Shown piece by piece: positions 32,993 through 39,530 of a stretch of 44,715 bases of DNA (the stretch's first letter is position 1; each line of letters starts with the position of its first letter). The position numbers were made by a program, and so were the translations under genes. The notes under the pieces are model-generated. The model worked only from the letters and a program-made list of their open reading frames with translations, had not been told where the DNA came from and did no database searches. Source of the DNA: Shigella phage vB_SboD_StarDew; the sequence record NC_073082. One strand, written 5' to 3'.

Positions 32993-33775
32993 TTAACGGC
33001 GGCGACGTTTGCGTGGCGCTTCGTCTTCGTCGTCGTCCTCATCTTCGTCATCGCGTGGCTTACGACGTTTGCGAGGTTTTTCATCTTCCTCATCGTCGTC
33101 GTCATCGCGGCGCTTGGACTTTTTGGACTTACGCGGCTTATCATCTTCATCATCGTCATCACGACGTTTTGACTTCTTAGCCTTGCGCGGTGCTTCGTCT
33201 TCGTCGTCGTTGTCCAGGTCTTCATCGGAGCAAGAAGATCCGCCACCGCCGAAGGCTTCGCCGTCATCCCGGAAGCGCAGACCCAAAAGACCAGCACCGA
33301 GTCCCTTGCCGTTGGTATTGTTCCACGCCCAAATATCCAGTGACACGTTGCAATAACAACCGGAGTAGATCTCCTGGCCTTCGATCTCGTCGCCTTCTAC
33401 GGTCAGACCTTGTTCAGTCTGCTTCTCGCCGAGTGACGTTTGAATGTTTGGTTGTTTGAACGATTTGGCGTTGATGTACAACATGCCTTCGAATTCTTCG
33501 GTTTCTTCGTCGCGCTCGTCACCGTCGCGAACTGCACATTCCTTAGAATCCTGGGCGTAGTGGCGGTCCATCCACTTATCGGCATTCTTCTCGGACTTCA
33601 GCTTGTCGGTGAGCACTGCGCGCGCTGCCGCTTCCACTTTGTCCACCTGCGGATCTTCTTTATCCAGAAGAATCACGGCGCGGTATGCTGGTTTTTGTCC
33701 ATCCTGTTTAGGGGTATCGCGTTCCCAAATTTTCAGGAAACATACGCGCACATTTTTCAGGTTGACTTTAGCCAT
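32993..33775 (-). CDS. putative ssDNA-binding protein (T7 gp2.5-like / DUF2815-like) with repetitive charged C-terminal tail
   Basis: N-terminal MAKVNLKNVRVCFLKIWE and central GKGLGAGLLGLRF resemble gp2.5-type SSB; GAGGAA RBS; C-terminus is D/E and K/R block repeats. Confidence 0.5.
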   Translation of the reverse strand: MAKVNLKNVRVCFLKIWERDTPKQDGQKPAYRAVILLDKEDPQVDKVEAAARAVLTDKLKSEKNADKWMDRHYAQDSKECAVRDGDERDEETEEFEGMLYINAKSFKQPNIQTSLGEKQTEQGLTVEGDEIEGQEIYSGCYCNVSLDIWAWNNTNGKGLGAGLLGLRFRDDGEAFGGGGSSCSDEDLDNDDEDEAPRKAKKSKRRDDDDEDDKPRKSKKSKRRDDDDDEEDEKPRKRRKPRDDEDEDDDEDEAPRKRRRR

Positions 33776-34108: not shown

Positions 34109-35531
34109 TGCTTAAGTCCTCGTCAGTAGCTTCTGACCACGCAGGGCGCGGGTCGTCGATTGGCGCTAATACCGGTTTGGCGGGTGCGCGCGTGATTTTA
34201 GCACACAGCTTCGCCCACACTTTCGGTTTTTCGTCCTTCAATACCTTCTCGGCATCCGTAGGGCTGAGCAATGTTTCTTTGTACATCACATCGCGCTTGA
34301 TCCGGGCCTTCGTGAAGATTTCAATCACTTCGCTCTCGTCCGCCCACTTGCGGATTCCTTCCTTACCGGCAACCATCTTTAAGCCCAGCGATTCGCCATC
34401 ACCCGCCATTACCGCTTTGAATACCGCGGACTCGATAGCTTTGATGTGCTGTCGCATTGCGTCCAGGCCTTCATACGCCTTGCGCAGTTCCGCAGCGCTC
34501 ATAGCACCGGGGGCCGCTTCTTTCTTACCACGCTTCGCACGTCGGGCCGCCTTCCGGGCTTCGCGGGCCATATTGCCGTCATGGTTGGCGCATTCTTCCT
34601 CTGTCGCAATACTCACGTCGTCGCCCAGGTCTTCGTCGGTTGCCGTTGGGGGTGTCATCGTGTCGATTGCGGCCTTAGCGCGGGCACTACACTGATCCGC
34701 AAATCGGCACCACTGGCACGCATCAACGCTGGGACGGAAGTCGGCACGGGTAAGTCCCTTCTTGCCTCGGGAATACGCCTCCAGTGCGGCAATCGCGCGC
34801 TTGGATGCAAACTTCGCGAATATCTCCAGCGCTTCTACCGAAATATCCCACTCCGACGCCCCGCCGCAATACGGCTGGAAGATAACCAGGCGAACGGTCG
34901 TAATGTCGTACATAGTTTGCAGCTTGCGCAGCAGTCCGAGCGCGTACAACATAAGCTGTTTGTTCTCTTTCGCCTCGACCTTATGCCGCCCGGTCTTCAG
35001 GTCGCCAACAATCAGCATGTACGTCCCATCGGTCTTTTTCATGACCATGACCATATCGGCAGTACCGAACGTTTTAATCCTGTTGCCGTCGATCTCGTAG
35101 CCTGAGTGAAGGACGCGGGTCAGATCGGCGCGCATCTCAAGCTGGACAAACTCCGCCACTTCGAGGAGCGGTCGCCAGTGGTCGATGTACGCGTCGCACT
35201 GTTTCACCATGTCGTCGTTGACCAGTACGCCGCCTTTCGGTGCTTTCGGGTGTGCCTTTACCGGCCCCTTGCCTTCGTTCTCGACGTAGCACCCTTTATA
35301 CGTCTTTGCGGTTATCAGCTTTTCGCCGGCGATAATGCGGTTTAGCACCACTTCAGATACGGTGTGCATACTCGTACCGTTAATCGCGGCTTGCCCGGAT
35401 TCGTTCGGGATATCTTTTTCCACCACCAGGGCAGCAGGGCAACCCATCCACTTTTTAGCACCGGATGGCCCAAGTAATGAGTGTTCTGTATTGCTACCGG
35501 ATTGCGTTTTACGTTTTGGTTTAATCGCCAT
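34101..35531 (-). CDS. PD-(D/E)xK / Cas4-like nuclease (DUF2800-like) of replication-recombination module
   Basis: N-terminal LLGPSGAKKWMGCPA, core GDLKTGRHKVEAKENKQLMLYAL, C-terminal Cys cluster CQWCRFADQC; usual neighbour of gp2.5-like SSB and PolA. Confidence 0.55.
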   Translation of the reverse strand: MAIKPKRKTQSGSNTEHSLLGPSGAKKWMGCPAALVVEKDIPNESGQAAINGTSMHTVSEVVLNRIIAGEKLITAKTYKGCYVENEGKGPVKAHPKAPKGGVLVNDDMVKQCDAYIDHWRPLLEVAEFVQLEMRADLTRVLHSGYEIDGNRIKTFGTADMVMVMKKTDGTYMLIVGDLKTGRHKVEAKENKQLMLYALGLLRKLQTMYDITTVRLVIFQPYCGGASEWDISVEALEIFAKFASKRAIAALEAYSRGKKGLTRADFRPSVDACQWCRFADQCSARAKAAIDTMTPPTATDEDLGDDVSIATEEECANHDGNMAREARKAARRAKRGKKEAAPGAMSAAELRKAYEGLDAMRQHIKAIESAVFKAVMAGDGESLGLKMVAGKEGIRKWADESEVIEIFTKARIKRDVMYKETLLSPTDAEKVLKDEKPKVWAKLCAKITRAPAKPVLAPIDDPRPAWSEATDEDLSNE

Positions 35532-35710
35532 TATTCCACCCGTGTAAACTGGACAATTACATATTTCACATTTGCCAGGCCCGCTTTTTCGACTCGGCGC
35601 TTAACTTCATTTTGCGCGTCCACAAAGCAATTGCTTGCGTTGGTGTTTTCAACAATAAAAGAAGTGTGGTCGTTTAATTCGTGGCATGTTGCCAGCACGA
35701 AGAATTTCAT
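35531..35710 (-). CDS. small ORF (59 aa), stop overlaps start of downstream nuclease gene
   Basis: Translated by hand: MKFFVLATCHELNDHTSFIVENTNASNCFVDAQNEVKRRVEKAGLANVKYVIVQFTRVE; ATG overlaps upstream stop; below ORF-track cutoff. Confidence 0.3.
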   Translation of the reverse strand: MKFFVLATCHELNDHTSFIVENTNASNCFVDAQNEVKRRVEKAGLANVKYVIVQFTRVE

Positions 35711-35961
35711 TATTTCGTCTCCCAGCGGTCAATCGTTCTTGCTTCGGATGCAACCGCGAAGCGAACATATTCCAGATTGGAGTCTGCCCAAATATAAAAG
35801 TCGGGGTTAGTAAAGGTGGTGCGCTTAATTTGCGCGGGGGTGTTTCGGCGTTTATCTATTACGGCAACTCGTGACTGAAAGCTGCCGATGCGTTCGAATA
35901 GCCAATAGTACGGGCGCTGGTCGCGGGAGTCCACCGCCTCAATTAGCGTGAAGCGTGCCAT
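35710..35961 (-). CDS. hypothetical protein (83 aa)
   Basis: GAGGACGAG RBS before ATG at 35961. Confidence 0.45.
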   Translation of the reverse strand: MARFTLIEAVDSRDQRPYYWLFERIGSFQSRVAVIDKRRNTPAQIKRTTFTNPDFYIWADSNLEYVRFAVASEARTIDRWETK

Positions 35962-35975
35962 TGTCTCGTCCTCTA

Positions 35976-36005
35976 AAAATAGGCCCGCAGATTAGCGGGC
36001 CGGAT
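35976..36005 (-). terminator. candidate attenuator hairpin (GGCCCGC-agatta-GCGGGCC) after first early gene
   Basis: 7-bp GC stem; on minus strand followed by TATTTTT. Confidence 0.35.
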
Positions 36006-36009
36006 AATA

Positions 36010-36525
36010 TTAATCTTCCAGTTCGAAATAAGTTTCGACGATTTCTTTAAGATCTTTGTGGAAGTCTTCGACGTCTTCATCTTCCAGCTTGGCGATTGAT
36101 TTGATCTCGAACGATTCCAGCAGGTCGTCAAATTCGTCGTTCGCGTCGTCGTCGTCACCACCGGCAATAATAGCGGCATATTGTTTGATTTCGTCGCGCA
36201 TCTCCGCCAGCGGATCGGCATCTTTCTTGCCTTTGACTTTCGCCGGGGCTTTTTTAGATTTAGCCGGTTTTTCGTCTTCGGCATCATCGTCGTCATCTTC
36301 TACGACTTCTTTTTTGGCCTTACCTTTCGCCGGGGCTTTTTTAGATTTAGCCGGTTTTTCGTCTTCGGCGTCATCGTCGTCATCTTCGACAACTTCTTTT
36401 TTCACCTTAGACGGCTTCTTGTCTTCCTGCTTACCAACGGCAGCGCCAACGGTTTCATAATGCTTAGCGATGGTTTCCAGTGCTACTACGCCGCGAGTAA
36501 TCAGGTTTACGATTTGTTCAAACAT
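36010..36525 (-). CDS. first gene of leftward early operon: protein with tandem Lys/Asp/Glu-rich repeats and acidic C-terminus
   Basis: GGAGA RBS before ATG at 36525; 26-aa unit KKEVVEDDDDDAEDEKPAKSKKAPAK repeated twice; track ORF 36010..36753 trimmed. Confidence 0.55.
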   Translation of the reverse strand: MFEQIVNLITRGVVALETIAKHYETVGAAVGKQEDKKPSKVKKEVVEDDDDDAEDEKPAKSKKAPAKGKAKKEVVEDDDDDAEDEKPAKSKKAPAKVKGKKDADPLAEMRDEIKQYAAIIAGGDDDDANDEFDDLLESFEIKSIAKLEDEDVEDFHKDLKEIVETYFELED

Positions 36526-36721
36526 GGTGTATCTCCGATTGGTTAAGTTTAGGTGTCGGCAGTTAACTTCGTCGGTGGCCTTAACATATTGCCAGGTTAC
36601 GCGTTCTCCCGTTCGGGTAGTGGACCTGGTTATATAATCACGGTTGGGAATCCTGACACTTCGATCCGGCCCCTGCGTTGCCCCTCTCCAGTTTGCGTCC
36701 TGCATCCTGTCGACGGAGTGA

Positions 36722-36750
36722 ATATTAGATTGGTTGCAGAAGGGAGTCAA
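36722..36750 (-). promoter_or_regulatory. candidate leftward early promoter: -35 TTGACT, 17-bp spacer containing TGCAACCAAT, -10 TAATAT
   Basis: Read on reverse complement directly downstream of the minus-strand terminator. Confidence 0.35.
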
Positions 36751-36759
36751 CAACTAATT

Positions 36760-36795
36760 AAAAAAAAAAAGCGCCGAGGCAAAATGCACCGGCGC
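36760..36795 (-). terminator. strong minus-strand rho-independent terminator (GCGCCG-13 nt loop-CGGCGC followed by 11 U)
   Basis: Read directly: plus strand has A11 then the hairpin, so the U-tract follows the stem only on the minus-strand transcript. Confidence 0.65.
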
Positions 36796-36824
36796 TAACC
36801 AATAAGAGACAATGAGACGGGAGT

Positions 36825-36853
36825 ATTATTACACGCGTGCGCGCCCGTTTCAA
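36825..36853 (-). promoter_or_regulatory. candidate minus-strand promoter: -35 TTGAAA, 17-bp spacer, extended -10 TGtAATAAT; about 60 nt upstream of the terminator
   Basis: Read on reverse complement; back-to-back with the rightward promoter. Confidence 0.4.
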
Positions 36854-36865
36854 TATCCAAAGGAT

Positions 36866-36894
36866 TTGACACCTTACGGTTTTAGGTGTAGTTT
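36866..36894 (+). promoter_or_regulatory. candidate rightward promoter: perfect -35 TTGACA, 17-bp spacer, weak -10 TAGTTT
   Basis: Read directly; 32 nt upstream of ATG at 36926. Confidence 0.4.
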
Positions 36895-36925
36895 CGTTGG
36901 TCATTAACCAACTGAGGGCAGTGCG

Positions 36926-37255
36926 ATGAATGTAAATGACGCAATCGAAATGTTAACGAAGACTGTTAGCAGTGAAACACGCCGGTCATGGGCTTATACC
37001 GATGCCGTGGGGGCGGTGTTATTTGAAATCGAACGACTGCGCAGTGTCGAAAAAGAATTACGCGCCAGGCTGGAATTGCTCAACGGCACGGCAGCAAGCA
37101 AGCTGCAAAAGCACAATGAAGAAATGGAAGAATACAAAAAACAGGTTATCCGTTTGCGCGCCGAGGGCAAATCCTGGGCGATGATTGCCGAGTTGACCGG
37201 AATTAATCAGAGCACAGTGCGCTCCTGGGTACGCAATAATAAAACTTCTAAGTAA
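36926..37255 (+). CDS. HTH DNA-binding protein (candidate transcriptional regulator)
   Basis: C-terminal helix-turn-helix-like segment GKSWAMIAELTGINQSTVRSWV; GAGGG RBS; first rightward gene. Confidence 0.55.
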   Translation: MNVNDAIEMLTKTVSSETRRSWAYTDAVGAVLFEIERLRSVEKELRARLELLNGTAASKLQKHNEEMEEYKKQVIRLRAEGKSWAMIAELTGINQSTVRSWVRNNKTSK

Positions 37256-37265
37256 GGCCGCGGCA

Positions 37266-39530
37266 ATGAGCTTAATTAAATTCGCTGTAACACGACCCGC
37301 TAAAAAAGGCGAAAAAGCCAGGGCGGAAAACTTCCAGATGACTACCGAAGAGTTTTTCGAATTTATCAATGATGCGAAAGAAATCTCCTCGGTGCATATC
37401 AACAAAACGGAAGATAAAGCGGAGTATGCACGCCGCAAGCGTAAGGCCGATGGCATTGTGGCTTATACCAGTGACGGCTTACGTCGCAAGACCAGTGCGG
37501 TGGACCGCTCGATCCTGTTCTTCGATATTGACCGTACTGACACCCGCACCCTACGCCGCTGCCGTAAGGCGTTCATCGACGCGGGACTGGAACACGTATT
37601 TCACACCACAACCGGCGACCGCCACCCGCTGAAAGGCGGCACGCGTTGCGCTCGATTCCTGGTACTCACGGACAAGCCTGTACCAGCTGAAGACCTGGGC
37701 CGTGTCCAGTATGCGCTATTACACCAACTGGGCCTGTCAGATGTGGACTTCGACGACTGCACGAAAGACACAAACCGCCTTATGTACCTGCCACACCAGC
37801 AGTCTGTTATTAAGTGCCACTATGGCAAGCGCGCCCGCGTCCGTCGTCTGCTCCGCCTGGCTGACAAGCTGGGAGTGGAAAAAGAGGAAGTTCGCCGCGA
37901 ACTGACCCAGGGCGACGACGCAGTGGCAGACGGCATTCTGGACTGGTGCTTCCAGGCAGGATTCGAGGAGTTATCTTCCGGTCGGGGTTATGAAGTGCCG
38001 TGCCCGAACGAACATCTGCACAGCGGCGAAGGGTCGACGGCTATCATGGTCAAGGATGGCGAGATCCGTTTCAAGTGTATGCACACCGGCAACGAGTGTT
38101 GCTCGGAGCTGAACAGACACCAACACCTGGCGCTGCGTCTTATCGGCATACCGGACCACCTCAACGTCGAGCCACACAATATGTCCCGTAAGCAAATCGC
38201 CGCCATCCTTCCGGGGCTGGACGACGAGGAAGTGGAATCCTTATACGAACATATTGTTGATGCAGTTGGCGACGGCGAAGAATACGGCGTGTGCACCGAT
38301 GCGGACCTGGATAACGAGCTGGTTGCGCTGTTCAGTAAGCACGACCCGATCATCGAGGGGTTGATTAACTTTAAATCGACCTGGTACATGGCTGGCGAGT
38401 CGAATATCGGTAAGTCTTTCTACGTGCTGGGCCAGATGGGAGCGGTTGCCGCCGGTATTCCGTTTGGTGGCGCGAAGGTCGTCCAGTCTCATTGCTTCTA
38501 TTTCGACGCGGAAGGTGGCGAAGCCTCCAACCAGCGTAAAGAAGCATTGCAGATTAAATACGAGCACGACCTGGACAAGCTGCACATTATAGACCTGCAG
38601 TCACGCGGCTGGGATATCACCAGCAAATCAGGCTTGCGCGAAGTTATCAGCTTTATCAACCGCACCGCTAACGGCGAACCGGTTGGCCTGGTGGCGTTCG
38701 ACTCACTCAACCAGACGGTTGCGTTGCGGTCCGCTGATGCTAAACCGTTCGACGAGAACAACGCCAGCGATATGGGTGAAGTGGTCAAAGCGCTGAAGGC
38801 CATCGCGGAAAATACAGGTGGCAGTGCGGGCGTCATCCACCACCCGGCTAAAGGTGCAAACGGCAGCAGAACGCCACGCGGGTCCGGTGCGCTGCATGGT
38901 GCTGTCGATTCTGCGTTCTTCCTGGAACAGCCGGACGACAACCAGCCCGGACAATTGAACCTGTATCACGAAAAGTCACGTAACGGCATCAAGCAAGCGC
39001 CGCGCGGCTTCGTCCTGCTCAAGTGCAAGGTGAAGGTGGATCTCCGCAAGTCAGAAGCGTTCGAGGCGCACCAGTCCACCAGCACCGGGCCAGACTTCGG
39101 CGACGTGGTTGCCGGATGGGACGTCAAGCCGATTGCCTCCACGCCACGCGACGAGACTCTCTACCTCGTACCGGTTGCCCTGGCACCGTTCGCTATTGAA
39201 CAGGCGAAGGCCGCGGGCAAAGCAGCAGTTAAAGAAGAGAACACCGCCGGACCGCGCAACGAAAAAGAGAAAGTGCTCTATGCGGCACTGGAAAAACTGA
39301 TGGAAGATAACCCGGACCATACTGGATTCAGTAAATCGGCAATTGTCCGCCAGGCTGGGCTGGCAAAAGGTGGCACTTCGACGAAGGCAATCGACGATAT
39401 GGTGGAGCGCGGGGTGATAGGTTTTTACACCGATCCGCACACCGGGGCCATCTATGGGTCGTCTAATTTGGTCATCAAATCGGATATACCCATCACGCTT
39501 TCAGCGACCGATGACGATTTAAAAGATTAA
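37266..39530 (+). CDS. DNA primase/helicase-like replication protein (prim-pol-like N-terminus, Cys/His cluster, RecA-like ATPase domain)
   Basis: ILFFDIDR acidic motif, Cys/His cluster CPNEHLHSGEGS...FKCMHTGNECC, Walker A MAGESNIGKS and Walker B-like LVAFDSLN. Confidence 0.65.
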   Translation: MSLIKFAVTRPAKKGEKARAENFQMTTEEFFEFINDAKEISSVHINKTEDKAEYARRKRKADGIVAYTSDGLRRKTSAVDRSILFFDIDRTDTRTLRRCRKAFIDAGLEHVFHTTTGDRHPLKGGTRCARFLVLTDKPVPAEDLGRVQYALLHQLGLSDVDFDDCTKDTNRLMYLPHQQSVIKCHYGKRARVRRLLRLADKLGVEKEEVRRELTQGDDAVADGILDWCFQAGFEELSSGRGYEVPCPNEHLHSGEGSTAIMVKDGEIRFKCMHTGNECCSELNRHQHLALRLIGIPDHLNVEPHNMSRKQIAAILPGLDDEEVESLYEHIVDAVGDGEEYGVCTDADLDNELVALFSKHDPIIEGLINFKSTWYMAGESNIGKSFYVLGQMGAVAAGIPFGGAKVVQSHCFYFDAEGGEASNQRKEALQIKYEHDLDKLHIIDLQSRGWDITSKSGLREVISFINRTANGEPVGLVAFDSLNQTVALRSADAKPFDENNASDMGEVVKALKAIAENTGGSAGVIHHPAKGANGSRTPRGSGALHGAVDSAFFLEQPDDNQPGQLNLYHEKSRNGIKQAPRGFVLLKCKVKVDLRKSEAFEAHQSTSTGPDFGDVVAGWDVKPIASTPRDETLYLVPVALAPFAIEQAKAAGKAAVKEENTAGPRNEKEKVLYAALEKLMEDNPDHTGFSKSAIVRQAGLAKGGTSTKAIDDMVERGVIGFYTDPHTGAIYGSSNLVIKSDIPITLSATDDDLKD

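Follow-up and report, generated by a model that had tools for sequence, protein, structure and literature searches.

What is the role of the small, highly charged protein encoded immediately to the left of a divergent control region in Shigella phage vB_SboD_StarDew? The stretch of DNA considered here (hereafter, the window) comprises 44,715 nucleotides (nt) of sequence record NC_073082, and its length and gene order are those of a complete Dhillonvirus genome. The gene in question, referred to below as X, lies on the minus strand (Table 1). A first-pass annotation had singled it out for an exact tandem repeat of 26 amino acids (aa) and, considering it to be the first early gene, placed it where anti-restriction or host-takeover factors are usually found. 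We see the repeat as an ordinary length polymorphism, prone to recombination, of a disordered linker. Of more interest, X is an abundant, conserved and uncharacterised member of a widespread replication module, and it shares a charge junction with the atypical tail of the SSB (single-stranded DNA-binding protein) of this module. Our tentative preference is that X is an abundant non-enzymatic electrostatic adaptor of the phage replication–recombination module.

The gene order around X was studied in 72 loci from IMG/VR, annotated records and two metagenomic contigs, in which the replication proteins of the window were located. The order is constant, namely, helicase-primase, X, usually a homologue of an 83-aa protein, DUF2800 PD-(D/E)XK exonuclease, DUF2815 SSB, and family-A DNA polymerase, and in the surveyed loci all genes from X to the polymerase lie on the strand of X. 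Among the 77 X loci with contigs reaching that far, the exonuclease, SSB, and polymerase genes were found downstream of X on the same strand in 71, 68, and 70 cases, respectively. Overall, X stands at the head of an exonuclease–SSB–polymerase array in the window and in more than 70 loci, with the same order and strand, and this synteny extends to Jerseyvirus, Cornellvirus, and distant metagenomic members. Due to this constant order, X should be regarded as a core member of a syntenic module and not as a variable accessory gene. The 83-aa protein (phrog_4965, function unknown), encoded just 3′ of X at 35710–35961 on the minus strand, has homologues in 63 loci, and its gene is syntenic throughout the clade, being situated between X and the exonuclease gene. 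EP23 (positions 1511–1636 of locus L003), slur05, and certain other phages have about 130 bp inserted between X and the gene of the 83-aa protein, with an open reading frame (ORF) of 41 aa.

The X protein is real, translated, and abundant, as judged from its orthologue. In EE09-infected cells, mass spectrometry at 25 min detected just four phage proteins (PMC10673088). Two of the four are CDS56, the orthologue of X according to both position and translation (annotated with a spurious 60-aa extension), and CDS61, the orthologue of the SSB, with the same tail.

Comparison of the region 35500–37300 with phage records yielded 174 matches with 80–99% identity, nearly all from Escherichia and Shigella phages of the genus Dhillonvirus (e.g., EP23, SECphi18, KarlBarth, bob). 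Two records, named Campylobacter phage A144 (H35, MG065648.1) and Acinetobacter phage NJ01 (H106, OQ221563.1), are 92–94% identical to this coliphage region, which suggests contamination or a mis-assigned host. Residues 1–171 of X align with positions 1–178 of the 178 positions of the phrog_3127 hidden Markov model (E = 9.3e-54); the same profile is matched by distant members of the family (P0115, P0139, P0141) and by gp41 of Jerseyvirus. Proteins assigned to phrog_3127 include SEP1_gp41 of Jerseyvirus, Gp46 of Edwardsiella phage eiAU, and a protein of Salmonella phage MB78. X shares with them the helix–linker–bundle plan and the place before the exonuclease, SSB, and polymerase genes, and the window protein is distinct merely in the identity of its two linker units. 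Homologues are present in Jerseyvirus, Kagunavirus, Cornellvirus, Enterobacter phage phiEap-2, and Edwardsiella phage eiAU. When 1.84 billion representative proteins were searched with a profile, only 45 representatives were found, and every one that was retrieved is tripartite, with a conserved N-terminal helix (consensus MLEKFLALLERFVVAHELIAANS), a charged linker rich in Pro, Lys, and Glu, and a C-terminal domain.

No credible match to X was found in sequence searches of Pfam, NCBIfam, and PDB, and no relative with known function was identified by sequence or fold in Pfam, PHROG, PDB, and fold searches. The Pfam match to DUF6669 (E = 0.02) was observed in only one out of 35 family members and is due to chance. 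Several candidate identities were also rejected: Ksap1 has 74 aa and is encoded between methyltransferase and phosphatase genes; anti-Tmn is ORF35 with a beta-sheet C-terminal domain; and the RAZR trigger and the Retron-Eco8 trigger are different Dhillonvirus proteins. Phage PTXU04, considered as a source of CRISPRi-ART gene-fitness data, is unrelated and thus not informative on X. In phage Enc34, the position of X is occupied by ORF3 (L081, 3681–4055; 124 aa, phrog_7721), whose plan resembles that of X, with an N-terminal helix containing LETIAAN, a Lys/Thr-rich linker, a helical C-terminal domain, and an acidic end. Homology of the two proteins was not accepted, as profile comparison was not significant, with both weakly matching phrog_18562; ORF3 may be a very distant homologue of X or an analogue.

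According to the AlphaFold2 model, constructed with a 95-sequence alignment, X consists of an amphipathic helix, a disordered linker, and an acidic three-helix bundle (Table 1). Both terminal parts are conserved, with a hypervariable middle between them. In the N-terminal helix, L8, R11, V13, A15, E17, and A20 are nearly invariant in family members down to approximately 25% identity. These residues are arranged symmetrically around V14, and such symmetry would fit an antiparallel homodimer. The linker contains 62% charged residues at a net charge of −1, and its charge-segregation parameter kappa equals 0.43, compared to 0.12 ± 0.05 (maximum 0.34) in 1000 shuffled sequences. Together with a predicted local distance difference test (pLDDT) score below 50 over most of its length, these values characterise the linker as an intrinsically disordered blocky polyampholyte. 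The helices of the bundle span residues 105–122, 126–138, and 149–167. The C-terminus is strongly acidic, as had been noted earlier: the last 70 residues contain 27 Asp/Glu and six Lys/Arg, yielding a net charge of −21. This acidity is retained throughout the family (median net charge of the domain −11). The C-terminal domain, with the consensus LR.EI..A..I..GD.D...D.FDDLLE.Y.V..V.KL.DEDV..FH, has a length of 68 aa in 100 out of 103 homologue clusters, and in some distant members of 208–212 aa (P0114, P0116, P0119) the three-helix domain occurs twice; thus, the bundle behaves as a modular unit. A second AlphaFold2 model, for the shortest natural homologue (115 aa), shows the same elements, with a predicted template modelling score (pTM) of 0.53 and low confidence for the N-terminal helix, and hence gives no indication that the helix packs against the bundle; docking of the helix on the bundle was therefore dropped.

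The repeat falls entirely within the disordered linker. As claimed in the first-pass annotation, the 26-aa unit occurs exactly twice, with a period of 29 aa, or 87 nt, and the two 78-nt copies differ at three third-codon positions, each difference being synonymous. Tandem Repeats Finder reports it at 36237–36409 (period 87, 2.0 copies, 94% matches, score 311) as the sole strong tandem repeat in the window, the runner-up having a score of 73. To place it in the family, we used a homologue set obtained by word-indexed search, comprising 105 clusters, of which 103 were included in the linker analysis with the middle segment anchored on the conserved ends. The repeat had been suspected to be a site of length variation, and this is indeed the case: the length of the middle segment is between 17 and 81 aa, with two acidic blocks in 58 clusters, one in 41, and none in four. 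Among cultured phages, one-unit genes of 429–444 nt are found in SO-1, B2, CEC_Kaz_2018, TheodorHerzl, jat, and SM_S22, and most other genes have 504–543 nt; in KarlBarth, also with one unit, the region is 86 nt shorter than in the window. No units are present in two near-linkerless proteins encoded on genome-length metagenomic contigs, P0086 (122 aa, 44.8 kb) and P0094 (124 aa, 44.3 kb). Since viable relatives manage with one unit, and these two with none, the repeat is a dispensable spacer and not the functional core. Lack of the repeats in close relatives, named in the first-pass annotation as an observation that would speak against its reading, is thus largely what is seen for the repeat itself, and the other such observation, an untranslated ORF, is not seen, CDS56 being detected.

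In relatives with two units, the units are 50–96% identical to each other (median 75%), and identity of at least 89% is observed only in the window phage, P0017, and P0014. As the units have mostly diverged, the duplication is old, and the exact identity of the two peptides in StarDew reflects a recent event between the 78-nt copies, either gene conversion or re-duplication. For practical purposes, this polymorphism can be disregarded in engineering of these phages.

The SSB is encoded at 32993–33775 and belongs to the Enc34/gp2.5 type (Pfam Enc34_ssDNA-bd, PF10991, E = 9e-33; phrog_112). The first-pass annotation had pointed out that it carries a charged tail similar to the X repeat, and this holds for the whole clade. 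The protein ends with ...DDEDEAPRKAKKSKRR DDDDEDDKPRKSKKSKRR DDDDDEEDEKPRKRRKPR DDEDEDDDEDEAPRKRRRR, that is, four acidic blocks alternate with basic ones over the last 80 or so residues; kappa of this tail is 0.55, with 0.10 ± 0.04 (maximum 0.29) in 1000 shuffles. In the X-containing loci (L004–L079), SSB tails have from one to four modules of the form [acidic]-x-Pro-[basic], e.g., DEEDEAPRRERRRR in Jerseyvirus-like phages, and in 60 out of 68 loci the end is strongly basic (net charge of at least +4 in the last eight residues), e.g., RRERRRR. The X linkers carry the acidic-Pro-basic junction as well, e.g., AEEEKPKRKPRKAK. At least one junction is present in both X and the SSB in 57 out of 69 loci compared, and in the window the respective decapeptides are nearly the same, EDEKPAKSKK in X and EDDKPRKSKK in the SSB.

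In T7 gp2.5 and Enc34 ORF6, the tail mediates partner contacts and DNA discrimination; in SSBs of the T7 type, it interacts with both the polymerase and the helicase, and tail and DNA compete for the binding cleft (PMC5686142). These tails and the X linker are alike in being highly charged and disordered parts of replication proteins whose genes share an operon, and the junction [D/E]n-x-P-[K/R]n is common to the Dhillonvirus SSB tail and the X linker. At the same time, the tails of T7 and Enc34 are purely acidic (ORF6 of Enc34, the founding member of the SSB family, ends with WDEDEV), whereas those in the X clade alternate between acidic and basic blocks. Unlike the SSBs, X is predicted by AlphaFold2 to be all-helical plus disorder, with no oligonucleotide/oligosaccharide-binding (OB) fold, and its charged segment is located internally, linking two folded elements. 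A recent exchange of DNA between the SSB tail and the X repeat was considered and rejected.

Since the SSB tail has the same junction and the T7-type tails contact the polymerase and helicase, X would most likely plug into the electrostatic contacts of the SSB tail. In such an adaptor, the N-terminal helix would provide self-association or docking; the linker would form a flexible tether of [acidic block]-K/A-P-[basic block] modules, as in the SSB tail; and the acidic bundle would attach to a partner at a basic surface that binds nucleic acids. X could then be an adaptor or a competitor tuning the engagement of the SSB, exonuclease, or polymerase with DNA. The tandem repeat represents a duplicated linker module, one that would set the length and valency of the linker rather than the core activity, and it expands, contracts, and is homogenised through recombination between its near-identical copies. 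The ingredients belong to already known kinds, namely, replication proteins with tethers and tails that are charged and disordered, and phage accessory proteins of acidic character. Similar tether architectures, by analogy only, are the (Glu-Pro)n/(Lys-Pro)n spacer of TonB and the hinge of ribosomal L7/L12, which likewise join a globular head to an anchoring helix by a flexible spacer; in distant X homologues the spacer, EPEDDEPEEKPKRKPR, is acidic and Pro-rich and then basic and Pro-rich, comparable to the TonB spacer. Unlike TonB and L7/L12, X has an amphipathic helix that contains charged residues and does not serve as a membrane anchor, the head fold is unrelated, and there is no sequence homology.

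The adaptor role and the binding partners of X are hypothetical, and several observations weigh against the adaptor. At the DNA level, the X repeat and the SSB tail agree in at best 28 out of 32 nt, which is no more than runs of Asp/Glu codons give, and therefore the shared motif could reflect convergent composition and not a common binding motif. A terminator directly following X is found in just seven out of 77 loci, being a feature of Dhillonviruses and a few others, and a family-wide conserved terminator was accordingly rejected. Finally, a Gam-like inhibitor of a host nuclease would be just as much expected to be syntenic with an exonuclease and an annealing protein.

The latter point leads to the best of the alternatives, a possible though less probable one, namely, that X is a DNA-mimic decoy, similar to lambda Gam, T7 gp5.9, and Ocr, in which the acidic bundle, possibly along with the acidic blocks, would fill the DNA-binding site of a host protein (RecBCD, a restriction enzyme, or a protein of the nucleoid) and protect linear phage DNA and recombination intermediates. 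Gam, gp5.9, and Ocr, like X, are small, strongly acidic phage proteins encoded early or beside the phage's own exonuclease and annealing genes; the gam-bet-exo order of lambda and the neighbourhood of genes 5.9 and 6 in T7 parallel the position of X directly upstream of the exonuclease and the annealing SSB. The charge of the C-terminal domain, the place of X as the first gene of its operon, and the abundance of its product agree with a decoy, and the other non-structural genes that were scanned include no recognisable Gam or different RecBCD inhibitor; in GenBank, “nuclease inhibitor gamma” is a label given in this region to a plain helix-turn-helix protein. However, X has no sequence match to the lambda Gam family (Pfam Gam) and no Gam-like fold, searches of Pfam, PDB sequences, and structures gave no match to Ocr or ArdA, and no sequence or fold similarity to gp5.9 or to solved DNA mimics was seen. 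Moreover, compared to Gam, gp5.9, and Ocr, X has an additional conserved hydrophobic helix and a polyampholyte linker, and its best-conserved element is this helix and not the acidic surface; the basic blocks of the linker are ill-suited to a pure DNA mimic; and X is a universal, syntenic core gene, unlike typical variable counter-defence genes. For the anti-restriction or host-takeover function suggested in the first-pass annotation, we thus obtained nothing positive, and X behaves as a core replication gene. If it were a decoy nevertheless, X would constitute a new structural class of anti-nuclease proteins.

Two further possibilities concern the charge blocks as such. The bolder one, which we regard as improbable, is that X and the SSB tail have in common a short linear module not described before, of the form [acidic run]-x-Pro-[basic run], by which these proteins, the two most abundant early ones in phages of the Dhillonvirus and Guernseyvirinae types, would contact each other or a common replisome surface and assemble phage DNA into an electrostatic replication–recombination compartment, the module copy number (0–2 in X, 1–4 in the SSB) serving as an evolvable valency dial. 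Slightly more doubtful still is a condensate scaffold, where X and the SSB would drive electrostatic phase separation with phage DNA, forming a replication compartment, and the repeat number would tune valency. Charge segregation above every one of the 1000 shuffles, for the X linker as well as for the SSB tail, variation of module number in both proteins, and their joint detection as abundant species are consistent with a scaffold; on the other hand, this argument derives from composition, and since near-linkerless X proteins occur naturally on the genome-length contigs P0086 and P0094, multivalent blocks are not required.

It is quite unlikely that X works as a regulator early in infection or as a host-takeover factor, with transcription or some other host machine as its target, e.g., as an acidic protein that binds RNA polymerase and switches gene expression. 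It is true that X is the first gene after a highly conserved divergent control region, with a promoter-like site and a terminator of its own, and that no phage RNA polymerase was found among the genes examined. Yet X has no DNA- or RNA-binding domain and no likeness to known RNA-polymerase-binding phage proteins, it is tightly linked to replication and not regulatory genes, and a separate helix-turn-helix regulator adjoins it. Of the claim that X is the first early gene, the positional part is correct, X being the first gene leftward of the control region, and “immediate-early” is a putative label drawn from this position and the promoter-like site. No transcript or expression-timing data were found; in the relative EE09, the protein was detected at 25 min of infection, and the MB78 homologue is named “13.88 kDa late protein” in UniProt.

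Lastly, that the ORF is not a gene, or that its true product is the TTG-initiated form of 247 aa annotated in some records, is very hard to reconcile with the proteomic detection of the orthologue, with GGAG located 7 nt upstream of the ATG, with the start MFEQ in most of the 105 homologue clusters, with the unrelated sequence upstream of MFEQ in the relative P0059, and with the same helix at the beginning of distant family members, and it has in its favour only the N-terminal extension present in several GenBank records. This extension of approximately 60 aa (MQDANWRG..., e.g., L002, 1511–2137; L006, 34845–35543; P0001, P0062, P0069, P0071, P0073) runs through the conserved leader. Given the ATG with GGAG and the family-wide MFEQ/MLEK start, it is wrong, and hence the start of X is misannotated in these records.

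Table 1. Features of gene X, the SSB tail, and the adjacent signals in the window.
Feature	Position	Strand	Basis
Gene X, ORF for phrog_3127 protein of 171 aa (start ATG 36525–36523, stop TAA 36012–36010)	36010..36525 (stop codon included)	minus	ORF list and sequence
Shine-Dalgarno sequence GGAG, 7 nt 5′ of the ATG of X	36533..36536	minus	read in sequence
N-terminal amphipathic helix, aa 2–24, best-conserved part of the family	36454..36522	minus	AlphaFold2, pLDDT ~83
Disordered charge-blocked polyampholyte linker, aa 25–104	36214..36453	minus	pLDDT <50 over most
Repeat unit 1, aa 42–67, KKEVVEDDDDDAEDEKPAKSKKAPAK	36325..36402	minus	sequence and Tandem Repeats Finder
Repeat unit 2, aa 71–96, peptide identical to unit 1	36238..36315	minus	sequence and Tandem Repeats Finder
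Acidic C-terminal three-helix bundle, aa 105–171, net charge −21	36013..36213	minus	AlphaFold2, pLDDT ~90
SSB C-terminal tail, four [acidic]-xP-[basic] modules, RKRRRR at the end	32996..33238	minus	Pfam, PHROG, sequence, kappa
Candidate sigma-70 promoter of X, TTGACT, 17-nt spacer, TAATAT	36722..36750	minus	consensus scan only
Intrinsic terminator directly 3′ of the X stop codon, GGCCCGC-loop-GCGGGCC, then TATTTTT	35972..36001	minus	terminator scan

The candidate promoter of X would yield a leader of approximately 190 nt, and it is retained in relatives, in some of them as TTGACA with an 18-nt spacer. The leader is not unusually structured (folding z-score +0.79) and has no Rfam match near the gathering score, and thus a structured or known RNA in it was rejected. 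The terminator hairpin with its T-run following X (35982–36001) has a predicted energy of −17.2 kcal/mol, and its stem is invariant and its loop variable in four Dhillonviruses; a terminator-like hairpin follows the SSB gene in 68 out of 68 loci. Terminators after X, in Dhillonviruses, and after the SSB fit stoichiometric proteins produced in excess over the downstream enzymes.

The divergent control region between X and the rightward gene (36526–36925, 400 bp) is 96% identical in five Dhillonviruses, with about 100 nt nearly invariant, and the flanking genes are only approximately 92–94% identical; no Rfam match of the region approached a gathering score, and it could hold operators, a replication origin, or another cis element. 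The motif TTAACCAAY occurs in the window only twice, at 36538–36546 (minus strand) and 36904–36912 (plus strand), in both cases in the mRNA sense, 12–14 nt before the start codons of the divergent first genes, X and a helix-turn-helix gene. The related sequences ATTGGTT and TAACCAAT are found at 36728–36735 and 36796–36803. The number of occurrences is not significant by itself, at least two matches being present in 11 out of 100 shuffles; TTAACCAAY may be an operator or a translational control site. A short unit at 36758–36904 (minus strand), with a promoter-like site at 36853–36825 and a strong hairpin followed by T11 at 36798–36762, contains an ORF of 48 aa, annotated in some records and lacking a PHROG match, and could be a small RNA or a microprotein. 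The rightward gene (36926–37255, plus strand) encodes a protein of 109 aa labelled in GenBank as “DNA recombination nuclease inhibitor gamma,” “transposase,” or “resolvase.” In Pfam, it matches helix-turn-helix domains only (HTH_23, HTH_28, Sigma70_r4_2), and it probably regulates the divergent promoters; the Gam label seems to be an annotation error passed on from record to record.

If X is indeed an electrostatic adaptor, it would be the missing non-enzymatic part of the module that comprises the DUF2800 exonuclease, the DUF2815 SSB, the family-A polymerase, and the helicase-primase. It would also account for the departure of these SSBs from the canonical, purely acidic tail. The module is common to hundreds of enterobacterial siphophages (Dhillonvirus, Jerseyvirus, Kagunavirus, Cornellvirus), which are used in therapy and in the research on defence systems.

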